Shown: positions 1-11,411, numbered from the stretch's first letter. The stretch is 46,293 nt of DNA from a virus (IMGVR_UViG_2872164251_000001), one strand, 5' to 3'. Translations and numbers: made by a program. The notes: generated from the sequence alone by a model not told the origin.

Positions 1-1039
1 TTACCTCGCATTTAAGTAAACCACGTTCTCCTCTTGTGCCGTATTTGTGCCATTGCGACTTATAATCGCATCGATTTTGCTTGCGTGCTCGGTGAGATGC
101 CCGGCTGAAAGGTGGGCGTATCTTTGAACCATTTCGAGAGTTTCCCATCCTCCCATCTCTTTAAGTGCAAGAAGAGAGACACCGGACTGAACCAGCCAGC
201 TTGCCCAGGTATGCCTCAGATCATGGAAGCGGAAGTTGCTAATGCCTGCCCGCTTTAACGCTCCCTTCCATGCCTTGTTGCTGTCGGTTCTCATCTTCCT
301 TACCGCTGCTGTTTTTGTTCCGTCGCTTCGGTAGGCAGGTTTGGTGTGGACAAATACCCATCTCTTATGGAGCCCCTGCTGTTTTCTTAATATCTGGCAT
401 GCGGTTTCGTTAAGAGGAACTCCGATCGCATTGCCAGCTTTTGTTTCATCAGGGTGCATCCATGCCATTTTCTTATCCAGATCGACCTGTGACCACTCAA
501 GGTCTGTAACGTTGGAACGGCGAAGGCCTGTCGTGATTGCAAACATGACCACAGGGAAGAAGTGAGGAGCAATTTCTGCAAACAGGCGCTTCGATTCCTC
601 CTCTGTAAGCCATCTGATGCGTCCATTCTTAACGCGTGGTGTTGATATTTTGGGTGCCCTGTCAAGCCATCCCCATTCAACAGCCATATTGAGAATGGCG
701 CGAAGTATTGCCAGATGCCTCGTCTTCGTTCCTTTGCTTGCAAGCTTTGGTTTATACTCCGGCACCGGATTGCCAAGTCGCAAACACCTGTCCCGGCTCA
801 TCTCCCAGTTCAGGCGATGGCGGCGGTTTTCCATCCCGTCTACCGCCTCCATTATTTTTTCTGTTGTTATGTCAGAGAGAATGGCTTCTCTGAAGTGCAA
901 CATCCAGAACGATATAATGCTCTTGTCATCATCAATGGACTTCTTATCCGATTTCTCACGCAGCCACCGTATGCAGGCTTCCTTGAATAGCTTTTTCGGT
1001 GATTCCCCGAGATTTTTTACTCTCCACGCTTTGAAGTGG

Positions 1040-1879
1040 TCAACAAAAACTGGCCACCGAGTTAGAGTTTTTCCAGTATCGATTTTCCGATTCGTTTGGG
1101 GGTAACCCACCGTTATATTCGTGCGGTCTTAGTGCACTGTAATATCCAACGATATAGTCCGTTATGGCGTGAGCTGCCTCGCTGAAGCTTACGTAACCCA
1201 CCACCGGCATCCATTCGTTCTTCAGACTCCTGAAGAAGCGTTCCATTGGGCTGTTATCCCAGCAGTTTCCGCGCCGGCTCATACTCTGTCTGATCTGGTA
1301 TCGCCACAATAATTGCCGGAACTGCCTGCTCGTATAATGACTGCCCTGATCGCTGTGGAACATCACCCCGCCGGGCTTACCACGGGTTTCCCATGCCATT
1401 TCCAGCGCTTTCATGGTGAGCCTGCTGTCCGGCGAGAACGACATGGCCCAGCCCACTGGTTTTCTTGCGAACAGGTCGAGAACAACGGCGAGGTACGCCC
1501 AGCGCTTACCCGTCCAGATATAGGTCACATCACCGCACCACACCTGATTTGGCTCGGTCACGGCGAACTGCCTTTCAAGGTAGTTAGGGATAGCAACATG
1601 TTCATGACCACCACGTTTATACCGGTGAGTCGGCTGCTGACCGCTGACCAGCCCCAGCTCTTTCATGAGCCTGCCAGCAAGCCAGCGTCCCATCTGGTAG
1701 CCTCTCCGGGTTGCCATTGTGGCGATGCTTCTTGCTCCGGCCGAACCGTGGCTGATGCCATGTAGCTCAAGTACCTGACTGCGTAATACAGCCCGTCTGC
1801 CGTCTGGTTTTTCAGGACGGTTTTTCCAGTATCTGTAGCTGCTGCGATGAACCCCGAACACATGGCAGAGTGTGACCAC
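1040..1879 (-). CDS. IS911 OrfB (DDE catalytic component, expressed as OrfAB by -1 frameshift)
   Basis: 279-aa ORF overlapping OrfA in -1 frame; DDE transposase-like sequence. Confidence 0.85.
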
Positions 1880-1905
1880 AGGATAATGCGCTCTGAGTTT
1901 CCCGA

Positions 1906-2208
1906 TTATCGAGAACTGTTCAGGGAGTCTGACATCAAGAGCGCGGTAGCCTTTTTTAATATTTCATTCTCCATTTCAATGCGTTGTAGCTTTTTCCTGA
2001 GCTCACGGATTTCAATTTGTTCCGGGGTAATGGGGGAGGCTTTTGGTGTTTTGCCCTGACGCTCATCACGCAGTTGTTTGACCCATCTTGTCATTGTGGA
2101 AAGGCCAACATCCATAGCTTTGGCGGCATCTGCCACCGTGTATTTCTGGTCAACAACCAGTTGAGCGGATTCGCGTTTAAACTCTGCGCTAAAATTTCTT
2201 TTTTTCAT
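1906..2208 (-). CDS. IS911 OrfA (HTH component of transposase)
   Basis: [43 protein letters not shown]6G slippery motif near 3' end. Confidence 0.85.
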
Positions 2209-2289
2209 TGGAGCACCTGTGTTGTTCTGAGGTGAGCATATCACCTCTGTTCAGGTGGCCAAATTCAGTGTGCCACTTCACTTCTGCTT

Positions 2290-2637
2290 TCAGACGATCG
2301 TGAAGTTCTTGCGCTTGCCTTTTGTCCGATGTTTCAAGAGAGCGTCTAACTCTTGATCCATCTGGCGCGACGAAATCGCAGTGCCACGTGCCACCGCGTA
2401 GTTTGATTGACATGCTTTAACCTCCTGCACATCAACCGCATTCACCGCGCTATTGTGTCTCACAGACTTAAGCGCCGCAATGCAGTCTGACTTGCAAATG
2501 CGATATGGGCTTTTAGGTTTATCTGGATTTATCTTTACGGCCTGAAGTCGTCCACTTCGTATCCACTGCGTGATAGTGCCTTTGTCTACCTTCAGATACG
2601 ACGCTGCCTCTTCACGAGTGAAGATTTCTTCTTCCAC
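2290..2637 (-). CDS. xis: Excisionase-like DNA-binding protein (AlpA/Xis-type HTH), GTG start
   Basis: MEEEIFTREEAASYLKVDKGTITQWIRSGRL HTH; directly upstream of and overlapping integrase start; GGAG 7 nt before GTG. Confidence 0.6.
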   Translation of the reverse strand: MEEEIFTREEAASYLKVDKGTITQWIRSGRLQAVKINPDKPKSPYRICKSDCIAALKSVRHNSAVNAVDVQEVKACQSNYAVARGTAISSRQMDQELDALLKHRTKGKRKNFTIV

Positions 2638-2727
2638 CTGGAATCTCCATTTATTGGATTGGTATTATTGCGGTAGGTCTGGATATCATTGAGCAATGAA
2701 CAGGCCTCATCGAGTATGAGGCTGTGG

Positions 2728-2975
2728 TTAGTCCTTGCGTAACTCGCTAATTCTTCTGTAAGTCTCTGGTGCTTTGTTTCCGTGTATCTTCATTTCAGAC
2801 TTCAACAGATCAACGAGGGAATCCCATTCGTTGAGGATGCCTTTGAATGCCGGAACGCGCTTTGCAACCTTGTCGAATGAATCTCTGATTTCTGGGATCT
2901 GCTCAACAAGTGCAACGCATCGTCTGAAATCGGCTGCGTCATGGGGAGCGCCGAAGTGATGACCATAGATATTCT
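2728..2975 (-). pseudogene. 3' fragment of an early-region gene, 5'-truncated at the IS629-like junction
   Basis: Frame open from IS boundary: ...NIYGHHFGAPHDAADFRRCVALVEQIPEIRDSFDKV...ELRKD stop; no start codon. Confidence 0.3.
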
Positions 2976-9140: not shown

Positions 9141-9287
9141 ATATCTGCAACAAACGCGCTTCACACGCGCGACTTATGAACACAGAGCCTTTCAGGATGA
9201 CCCTTGAGGATGCCGGTTTGGTAATCGGTGCCTTTCTGTGGGCCGGAATCCTGTGTGACAAGGTTCATCACTAAAAGGTAATCACTG

Positions 9288-9793
9288 ATGAAGTACCCAA
9301 CAGTTATTGTCAATGGTGTGTCCGTTCGTGTTGATGAGGATGGACGCTACAACTTAAACGATCTCCATGCAGCAGCAGTTGCAAATGGAGAGGCTACAGA
9401 GCAACAGCGCCCAAGCCAGTTTTTGCGTAGCGCGCAGATAAAACGCTTCATAAAAGCACTTTGGAACAAATTCAACCACTTAAAATAATCAAAGGTGGTG
9501 CAGAACCAGGTGTGTGGGGTGTTGAACTTCTGGCAATCAGATATGCAGCATGGATTAAGCCGGAATTTGAAATCGAAGTTTATGAAGTTTTCAAAACGGT
9601 TGTCCGTCTCGGCGTTGGCGCAATGTCCCGTCTGAATAGAATCGATCACATCATCAATACTGAAACCAAAGCGATAAGCCAGTGCGCAAGCCAAATGGCT
9701 AAGTGGGGCGTTGGTGGGCGAAAAAGATTGCTTCATGTTGCACGTGAGAGAGCGGCAAATGAAGTGCAAATGTATTTGCCCGGAATGGTGTGA
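9288..9793 (+). pseudogene. KilA-N domain gene, frameshifted near 9455-9465
   Basis: 9288-9488 (VIVNGVSVRVDEDGRYNLNDLH) and 9461-9793 (GVWGVELLAIRYAAWIKPEFEIEVYEVF) are consecutive parts of one KilA-N domain in different frames; paralog of 20981-21778. Confidence 0.6.
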
Positions 9794-10234
9794 TTTCGCA
9801 GGTTAATCCAGTTTTTGCATTACGGCAGTACCGCGAAACAACCCAAGCCAGTAAGTGGGGAAATAACACTGGCAGCCACTGAAAGATGAACCTCCAGCCT
9901 TATGGCAAAAAAGATTCTTTGTGGTGGCGGACTGATGGAAAGACATCGGTTATTGCAGAGGCCATTCAATGAGTGGTCTCGATAATGGCTTATACCCTAC
10001 ACGGGATAACTTAACTGATATCCCTTTTAACGGATAAACGGAGCCAACAATGGCAGAGATTATTCCCATGACTGAAGAACAGAAATTCCAGTTAGAGATT
10101 TACAAACTGGTTATGAACCAGAACGCAGCCGCAGAAGAAGCATTTCAGTTCATTGGCACTGATGAAGTGGCACACTGAATTTGGCCACCTGAACAGAGGT
10201 GATATGCTCACCTCAGAACAACACAGGTGCTCCA

Positions 10235-10537
10235 ATGAAAAAAAGAAATTTTAGCGCAGAGTTTAAACGCGAATCCGCTCAACTGGTTGTTGACCAGAAA
10301 TACACGGTGGCAGATGCCGCCAAAGCTATGGATGTTGGCCTTTCCACAATGACAAGATGGGTCAAACAACTGCGTGATGAGCGTCAGGGCAAAACACCAA
10401 AAGCCTCTCCGATAACACCAGAACAAATCGAAATACGTAAGCTGAGGAAAAAGCTACAACGCATTGAAATGGAGAATGAAATATTAAAAAAGGCTACCGC
10501 GCTCTTGATGTCAGACTCCCTGAACAGTTCTCAATAA
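10235..10537 (+). CDS. IS911 OrfA
   Basis: [21 protein letters not shown]...; A_AAA_AAG slippery motif at 10486-10492. Confidence 0.85.
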
Positions 10538-10563
10538 TCGGGAAACTCAGAGCGCATTATCCT

Positions 10564-11403
10564 GTGGTCACACTCTGCCATGTGTTCGGGGTTCATCGCA
10601 GCAGCTACAGATACTGGAAAAACCGTCCTGAAAAACCAGACGGCAGACGGGCTGTATTACGCAGTCAGGTACTTGAGCTACATGGCATCAGCCACGGTTC
10701 GGCCGGAGCAAGAAGCATCGCCACAATGGCAACCCGGAGAGGCTACCAGATGGGACGCTGGCTTGCTGGCAGGCTCATGAAAGAGCTGGGGCTGGTCAGC
10801 TGTCAGCAGCCGACTCACCGGTATAAACGTGGTGGTCATGAACATGTTGCTATCCCTAACTACCTTGAAAGGCAGTTCGCCGTGACCGAGCCAAATCAGG
10901 TGTGGTGCGGTGATGTGACCTATATCTGGACGGGTAAGCGCTGGGCGTACCTCGCCGTTGTTCTCGACCTGTTCGCAAGAAAACCAGTGGGCTGGGCCAT
11001 GTCGTTCTCGCCGGACAGCAGGCTCACCATGAAAGCGCTGGAAATGGCATGGGAAACCCGTGGTAAGCCCGGCGGGGTGATGTTCCACAGCGATCAGGGC
11101 AGTCATTATACGAGCAGGCAGTTCCGGCAGTTATTGTGGCGATACCAGATCAGACAGAGTATGAGCCGGCGCGGAAACTGCTGGGATAACAGCCCAATGG
11201 AACGCTTCTTCAGGAGTCTGAAGAACGAATGGATGCCGGTGGTGGGTTACGTAAGCTTCAGCGAGGCAGCTCACGCCATAACGGACTATATCGTTGGATA
11301 TTACAGCGCACTAAGACCGCACGAATATAACGGTGGGTTACCCCCAAACGAATCGGAAAATCGATACTGGAAAAACTCTAACTCGGTGGCCAGTTTTTGT
11401 TGA
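10564..11403 (+). CDS. IS911 OrfB
   Basis: 279-aa ORF, one substitution versus copy 1. Confidence 0.85.
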
Positions 11404-11411
11404 CCACTTCA

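Follow-up and report, generated by a model that had tools for sequence, protein, structure and literature searches.

An IS911 copy without a target duplication is probably the scar of a late-operon deletion in a P22-like prophage

Introduction

When an insertion sequence (IS) lacks a target-site duplication (TSD), the usual cause is recombination between two IS copies or deletion of adjacent DNA (PMC11708052). For IS150, a member of the IS3 family, 14 of 14 IS-associated deletions in three populations of the long-term evolution experiment (LTEE) each arose from a pre-existing copy (PMC11708052), and IS911 has expanded in all Shigella species, in which IS-mediated gene loss and rearrangement are documented (PMC7373316). 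Here we analyze a stretch of viral DNA of 46,293 nucleotides (IMGVR_UViG_2872164251_000001, hereafter the window) that carries two copies of IS911 in inverted orientation. The closest described element is the IS911 of phage Sf6, with which both copies share a length of 1249 bp, TG...CA ends and an orfA/orfB pair with orfB in the -1 frame and an AAAAAAG motif; copy 1 also has the 3-bp target duplication expected of IS911, and the Sf6 element sits in ninG, a site different from those of both window copies.

The original prediction, made from the sequence alone, held that copy 2 marks a junction between unrelated phage remnants, created by IS-mediated deletion or inversion. We find instead that copy 2 lies within what was a single P22-like late operon, and that it is very probably the scar of an in situ deletion of about 9.2 kb in one prophage, whereas copy 1 is a simple insertion.

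Results

The flanks of copy 2 lie kilobases apart in one late operon of relatives

The DNA to the left of copy 2 stops in the 38th codon of a DUF2560 gene, which in P22-like phages and prophages (Sf6, where it is gene 67, E212, and those of E. coli WP7-S17-ESBL-01 and E. coli GDSC2BY4G) lies just upstream of the small terminase gene. The DNA to the right starts at Sf6 position 9013, where codon 254 of the tail-needle gene begins, and is in frame, reading FLASNGSTLTIQSNGAAFTATTIKIIAEQ followed by a stop. From there through gp14, gp7 and the start of gp20 it is 97.2% identical to Sf6 9013-10315. In the prophage of GDSC2BY4G (locus L011) the left flank ends at 27566 and the right flank resumes at 36788, leaving 9221 bp missing from the window; the corresponding positions are about 38713 and 9013 on the circular map of Sf6 (9342 bp missing), 38348 and 9118 in phage Gally (about 9450 bp) and 7882 and 18298 in the WP7-S17-ESBL-01 prophage (locus L001; about 10.4 kb). 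In all four relatives the two flanks are on the same strand and in the same order, with head-morphogenesis genes between them, and in none of the relatives compared are they contiguous. The missing segment comprises the rest of the DUF2560 gene, the small and large terminase, portal, scaffold, coat, gp4 and gp10 genes, and the tail-needle gene except for its last 29 codons.

The original prediction correctly described nin, Q, lysis and KilA-N genes to the left of copy 2 and Sf6-like ejection genes to the right, and it proposed the alignment with related genomes reported here. However, both flanks belong to one P22-like late operon and are carried together by single genomes, Gally at 96-97% identity and WP7-S17-ESBL-01 at 97-98.5%, so these are not remnants of unrelated phages. 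The left side has a 'lambda-type' look because the nin-Q-lysis module is common to lambdoid phages, being about 95% identical among HK97, HK022 and the P22-like HK620, Kapi1 and E212; the DUF2560 gene at the end of the module, together with the collinearity of the whole prophage, places this side in a P22-like genome. The gp14, gp7, DUF2560 and KilA-N genes were identified by precomputed Pfam matches and DNA homology; an NCBIfam scan gave no named family for any of them.

Both junctions of copy 2 are sharp, and neither target has meaningful homology to an IS end. With a slash marking the junction, the intact DUF2560 target reads ...GGCACTGA/CGAGCTG... and the intact gp26 target reads ...GACGGC/TTTCTTG..., also given as ...GACGGCTTT/CTTG.... 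BLAST extensions to 10165-10169 suggested that the DUF2560 target and the IS911 end share a 7-nt microhomology, but this proved to be only a scattered match (TGAAGTG versus CGAGCTG). A decayed duplication at copy 2 was likewise rejected, as the flanks are kilobases apart in relatives. Copy 2 differs from an ordinary IS911 in having no target duplication, and a later deletion would explain this: its flanks, TGA and TTT, would be unmatched because the sequence between DUF2560 and gp26 was removed.

Two alleles of IS911

A repeat search of the first 14 kb returned one inverted repeat, at 1032-2280 and 10163-11411, with arms of 1249 nt that are 99% complementary and a gap of 7882 nt; at this length and identity, chance is excluded. 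This agrees with the predicted inverted pair bracketing 7.9 kb, whose noted start, 1031, falls on the final T of the CTT flank. Read directly, the ends of copy 1 are CTT/TGAAGTGGTC...CCACTTCA/CTT (more widely, ...ACGCTT/TGAAGTGGTCAAC...CCACTTCA/CTTCTGC), and those of copy 2 are TGA/TGAAGTGGCA...CCACTTCA/TTT (...GCACTGA/TGAAGTGGCACAC...CCACTTCA/TTTCTTG). The CTT duplication of copy 1 and the TGA and TTT flanks of copy 2 are therefore as first described, with no matching duplication at copy 2.

Several features lead us to identify both elements as IS911 of the IS3 family. Over 1249 nt, the Sf6 element that carries the annotation 'insertion sequence:IS911' has 99.84% identity to copy 1 and about 99.1% to copy 2, and many E. 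coli loci that RefSeq lists as 'IS3-like element IS911 family transposase' match the whole of copy 2 at 99.8%. The terminal inverted repeats are imperfect and of the form 5'-TG...CA-3'; the shared ends (TGAAGTGG...) agree at 8 of the first 8 nt and then in a GGCCACC block, and the element ends in ...CCACTTCA. In both copies the 100-aa OrfA and the OrfB frame are open, with the AAAAAAG slippery motif at IS position 324. OrfB scores 302 bits on the NF033516 IS3 family transposase model (cut-off 160) and also matches PF00665 (rve). Identity, terminal repeats and gene layout thus agree for both copies, and the 3-bp duplication is present at copy 1 and absent at copy 2.

The copies differ from each other at 13 nt, nine of which fall at IS positions 246-282. 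This cluster spans 37 nt of orfA (window 10408-10444 in copy 2), and eight of its nine differences are synonymous. At the protein level there are exactly three changes, OrfA E69K, OrfA R100Q and one G/C difference in OrfB, which matches the count given originally. The patch at 246-282 was considered as the trace of a visible hybrid IS in copy 2; this was rejected, as E. coli commonly carries this allele, at 99.8% over the full length. On the basis of these comparisons we regard the two copies as two common IS911 alleles, copy 1 being of the Sf6 type, and not as a recent duplicate pair. The inverted copies are independent insertions rather than a functional pair.

Copy 1 and the interrupted integrase gene

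When the IS and one CTT were removed in silico and the minus strand translated, a 386-aa tyrosine integrase was recovered, with an excisionase-like gene upstream. The reconstructed empty site of 1723 nt is found uninterrupted in E. coli chromosomes, with identities reaching 99.9% (YZ_2_2) and coverage of at least 80% in 118 genomes. In GDSC2BY4G the flanks of copy 1 correspond to L011 5845-6875 and 6873-7568, at 99.1-99.2% identity, and the 3-nt overlap of these segments is the duplication. A match of 3 bp such as CTT has by itself a chance of 1/64; it is a real target duplication because the uninterrupted site confirms it. We therefore read copy 1 as an ordinary IS911 transposition into int with a 3-bp CTT duplication. 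In L011 the integrase gene (annotated 'site-specific integrase') is directly beside tRNA-Thr, downstream of proA. A search of the window for tRNA genes, both for the attachment site and for tRNAs after Q as in Sf6, found none.

The copy 2 junction in other genomes

The left junction of copy 2 creates a 42-aa open reading frame (ORF) in which the N-terminus of the DUF2560 protein is followed by EVAH from the IS, and at least 24 public contigs contain this ORF. Contigs assembled from short reads end within the IS. Two of the contigs with the ORF cross copy 2, those of S. flexneri K-1770 and VA-6 (assembly names from the published strain table). Their arrangement is identical to that of the window, at 99.96% over 18.8 kb for K-1770 and 99.99% over 12.7 kb for VA-6; the VA-6 contig spans both IS911 copies and the K-1770 contig ends inside copy 1. 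The presence of the junction in these strains and in the other contigs indicates that the deletion is fixed in a lineage.

The situation at the IS1 downstream is different. In VA-6 (AFGW01000011, 12666-12996) gp20 runs for at least 331 nt, at 97.7% identity to Sf6, past the point where IS1 interrupts it in the window and in K-1770, so the IS1 event is either later than the IS911 deletion or different in extent in that strain. Thus the IS1-associated junction differs between strains that are otherwise 99.99% identical.

Prophage context and the other IS junctions

The remaining features were compared with the layout of intact P22-like genomes (Table 1). All compared segments of window 1-13923 are collinear with the tandem prophages of E. 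coli GDSC2BY4G (NZ_CP136025.1) at thrW, where a P22-like prophage is followed by an SfV-like prophage that begins int2-xis2-yfdT-yfdS-yfdR; the window has the same layout. The order tested was int-xis-...-nin-Q-lysis-DUF2560-terminase-portal-scaffold-coat-gp4-gp10-gp26-gp14-gp7-gp20-gp16-tailspike, and the retained segments keep this order and orientation on L011, L001, Sf6 and E212, as expected of a member of the P22-like phages (Lederbergvirus). The genes that are absent are exactly those between the IS-marked breakpoints. GDSC2BY4G shares with the window the integrase, the excisionase and the neighboring hypothetical gene, at 99.1-99.2% over the two segments that flank copy 1. In contrast to the window, from which about 14 kb, 9.2 kb and 8.7 kb are missing at three ISs and whose int is interrupted, its P22-like prophage is essentially complete. 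From this collinearity, window 1-12714 is read as one defective P22-like prophage (Sf6/HK620-type, Lederbergvirus) of the thrW kind, with an SfV/SfII-like prophage next to it in tandem.

Table 1. Features of the left part of the window, with the evidence used to assign them
Position	Strand	Feature	Basis
1..1031	-	3' part of thrW-type prophage integrase gene (tyrosine recombinase); window begins at its stop codon	Translation; tyrosine recombinase models
1029..1031	.	CTT, left target-duplication copy of IS911 copy 1	Direct reading; site single in uninterrupted E. coli homologues
1032..2280	-	IS911 copy 1 (minus-strand orfA/orfB), a simple insertion near codon 45 of int	99.84% to Sf6 IS911
2281..2283	.	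CTT, right target-duplication copy of IS911 copy 1	3-nt overlap of flank alignments, L011 6873-6875
2284..2413	-	5' part of integrase gene, about the first 44 codons	Reconstructed ORF; E. coli homologues
2290..2637	-	Excisionase-like helix-turn-helix gene	TIGR01764 excisionase above cut-off; L011 6882-7229
2728..2975	-	Early-left hypothetical gene, 5' end lost to IS629-like element	Window 2281-2976 = L011 6873-7568; gene = L011 7320-7664
2976..4225	-	IS629/IS1203-like IS3-family element, no target duplication (TCT versus TCG)	IS3 family transposase, 315 bits; homology
4226..10049	+	nin region, Roi/Ant, RusA, NinH, Q, holin, lysozyme, Rz and KilA-N of P22-like prophage	Pfam; collinear with Lederbergvirus E212
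10050..10162	+	First 37-38 codons of DUF2560 gene (Sf6 gene 67 / HK620 hkbM type), cut by copy 2	PF10834; homology
10163..11411	+	IS911 copy 2, flanks TGA/TTT, no target duplication; junction of probable 9.2-9.5 kb deletion	Repeat search, direct reading, homology
11412..11501	+	Last 29 codons and stop of Sf6-type tail-needle gene (gp26 homologue)	Window 11412 = Sf6 9013; 27/29 aa identical to Sf6 gene 9
11501..11956; 11959..12651; 12661..12714	+	gp14 (DUF2824); gp7 ejection protein; gp20, first 18 codons	PF11039, PF25688; Sf6 homology
12715..13482	-	IS1, 768 bp	IS1 transposase, 146 bits; right flank = SfV 22907 in orf30/yfdR

The IS629-like element joins the 5'-truncated early-left gene to the nin region, with about 14 kb of early-left, immunity and replication DNA lost relative to L011. 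Inside the element itself, about 60 bp are missing by comparison with the GDSC2BY4G copy. An independent IS1203, bounded by a TAC duplication, lies in ninD at L011 20001-21311; it is oriented like the IS629-like element of the window but has a different right flank. Within the module to the right, the KilA-N gene is split into overlapping ORFs at 9288-9488 and 9461-9793. In GDSC2BY4G it is a single coding sequence of 531 nt, and the split gene is probably a frameshift pseudogene.

At the other end of the remnant, IS1 joins codon 18 of gp20 to SfV position 22907, inside orf30/yfdR. The gap relative to L011 is 8.7 kb and removes the rest of gp20, gp16, the tailspike gene, the second int and xis, yfdT, yfdS and part of yfdR. 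It is this IS1, and not IS911 copy 2, that we place at the real junction between different prophages. Window 13483-46293 is an SfV/SfII-like myovirus prophage that retains most of its early and late genes. Three of its intervals (about 17856-19032, 22788-24787 and 29483-33077) have no SfV match, and the last 1.1 kb of the window, with tail fibre assembly and acyltransferase genes, is 98.9% identical to SfII. This match to SfII suggests a serotype-converting prophage that lost its integrase end.

Discussion

The sharp boundaries of copy 2, the collinearity of the segments around it, the size of the missing segment and the sharing of the junction with other S. flexneri assemblies are features of the DNA itself, and together they make it very probable that copy 2 is the scar of a deletion within one P22-like prophage. 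The scar resembles the IS150 adjacent deletions (PMC11708052) and the IS-associated losses of Shigella genome reduction (PMC7373316) in having a single IS, no duplication, flanks that are kilobases apart in relatives, and fixation in a lineage. Unlike the LTEE deletions, its history is reconstructed from comparison only.

Two routes to this deletion fit the sequence equally well. In the one that we slightly favor, IS911 would have inserted in the late operon and a transposase-driven adjacent deletion would then have extended to one side. This preference is one of parsimony, because three IS families (IS629-like, IS911 and IS1) each stand alone at a deletion junction within 13 kb. In the other, two directly oriented IS911 copies, one in DUF2560 with TGA and one in gp26 with TTT, would have recombined in a RecA-dependent manner, removing the same 9.2 kb and leaving one hybrid copy. 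We consider this second route quite possible: it is the classic explanation of an IS without a TSD and needs no unusual transposase chemistry, IS911 is multicopy in Shigella, and each of the flanks TGA and TTT could be one half of a 3-bp duplication at its intact target. However, it requires two IS911 copies in the same orientation within 9 kb and, by analogy, similar pairs at the IS629 and IS1 junctions; copy 2 has no unique hybrid signature, being 99.8% identical over its full length to a common E. coli IS911; and neither parental insertion was found in the collections searched. It is nearly as likely as adjacent deletion because the standard copy-out-paste-in pathway restores the donor, such that a one-step adjacent deletion by IS911 would need a non-standard event such as an IS dimer or aberrant strand transfer.

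This mechanistic difficulty is one of the points that weigh against an in situ deletion as we propose it. Another is that no pre-deletion intermediate, namely DUF2560 with an IS911 between TGA duplicates or gp26 with one between TTT duplicates, was found in E. coli complete genomes, GTDB representatives or JGI metagenomes. The former were searched with synthetic junction queries (gp26...TTT joined to the IS911 left end, and the IS911 right end joined to TGA and the rest of DUF2560) and the latter two by exact patterns. Because intermediates are lacking, we infer the order and route of events. Finally, the flanks differ in their affinities, the right one being 97% identical to Sf6 and 87% to L011 and the left one 95-97% identical to L011. 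Such a mismatch is the mosaicism typical of these phages, but a small opening remains for an origin from two parental prophages.

That opening is what a joining of two unrelated or separate prophages would exploit, by IS911 recombination across loci, for example through inversion or translocation between opposed P22-like prophages. An inversion between oppositely oriented prophages would also yield collinear flanks, and the 87% versus 97% identity of the right flank points the same way. Against this, both flanks occur in single phage or prophage genomes at 96-98% identity, the 1.3 kb right flank leads across IS1 to the same SfV-like prophage that follows at thrW in GDSC2BY4G, and an inter-locus origin needs extra rearrangements to restore the order that all compared segments keep. 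We judge this origin improbable. More improbable still is that the 7.9 kb segment was inverted by recombination between the two copies, swapping the flanks of copy 2. Inverted repeats of 1249 bp and 99% identity are a possible substrate, but such an event would swap flanks at both copies, yet CTT still stands on both sides of copy 1 and the int frame runs on across it; nin-Q-lysis genes in the interior share the direction of the late genes to the right of copy 2, as in intact phages; and the window and VA-6, which spans both copies, have the same orientation, with which K-1770 is consistent. A net inversion is thus excluded, because an odd number of inversions would break the CTT site and the int frame at copy 1. 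Of the proposal that copy 2 reflects IS-mediated deletion or inversion rather than simple insertion, the deletion part is borne out by flanks that lie 9.2-9.5 kb apart in GDSC2BY4G, Sf6 and Gally, and the inversion part is not, given the intact CTT and int. That the inverted copies could serve as a substrate for future inversion is reasonable in principle.

We give almost no credence to a composite transposon, in which both IS911 copies and the 7.9 kb interior would have been inserted as a unit. The inverted terminal copies resemble those of a Tn10-type element, but the outer flanks differ (CTT at 1029-1031 and TTT at 11412-11414), unlike those of a unit insertion; copy 1 carries a duplication of its own, in related prophages the interior and the DNA outside it are collinear, and the two copies are different alleles. 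Insertion-deletion coupling has been proposed for movements of IS5 and IS481 into rearrangement breakpoints. It is decidedly improbable that the copy 2 junction arose in this way, in one step and with no duplication as the insertion was coupled to the 9 kb deletion, or that S. flexneri populations still undergo measurable inversion of the Q-lysis module between the two IS911 copies.

In situ deletion in one prophage thus remains our preferred explanation, and it is ordinary, already-known biology with no new mechanism or element type. Its value lies in a corrected map of the region, in which a P22-like prophage of the thrW kind was cut by four IS events (IS911 in int, and deletions at the IS629-like element, IS911 and IS1), and IS1 now links its remnant to an SfII/SfV-like serotype-converting prophage. 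The junctions that strains share could be useful as markers of lineages. The locus is of little importance beyond annotation, and it illustrates clearly, in a genome of the S. flexneri type, how ISs drive the decay of prophages in Shigella.

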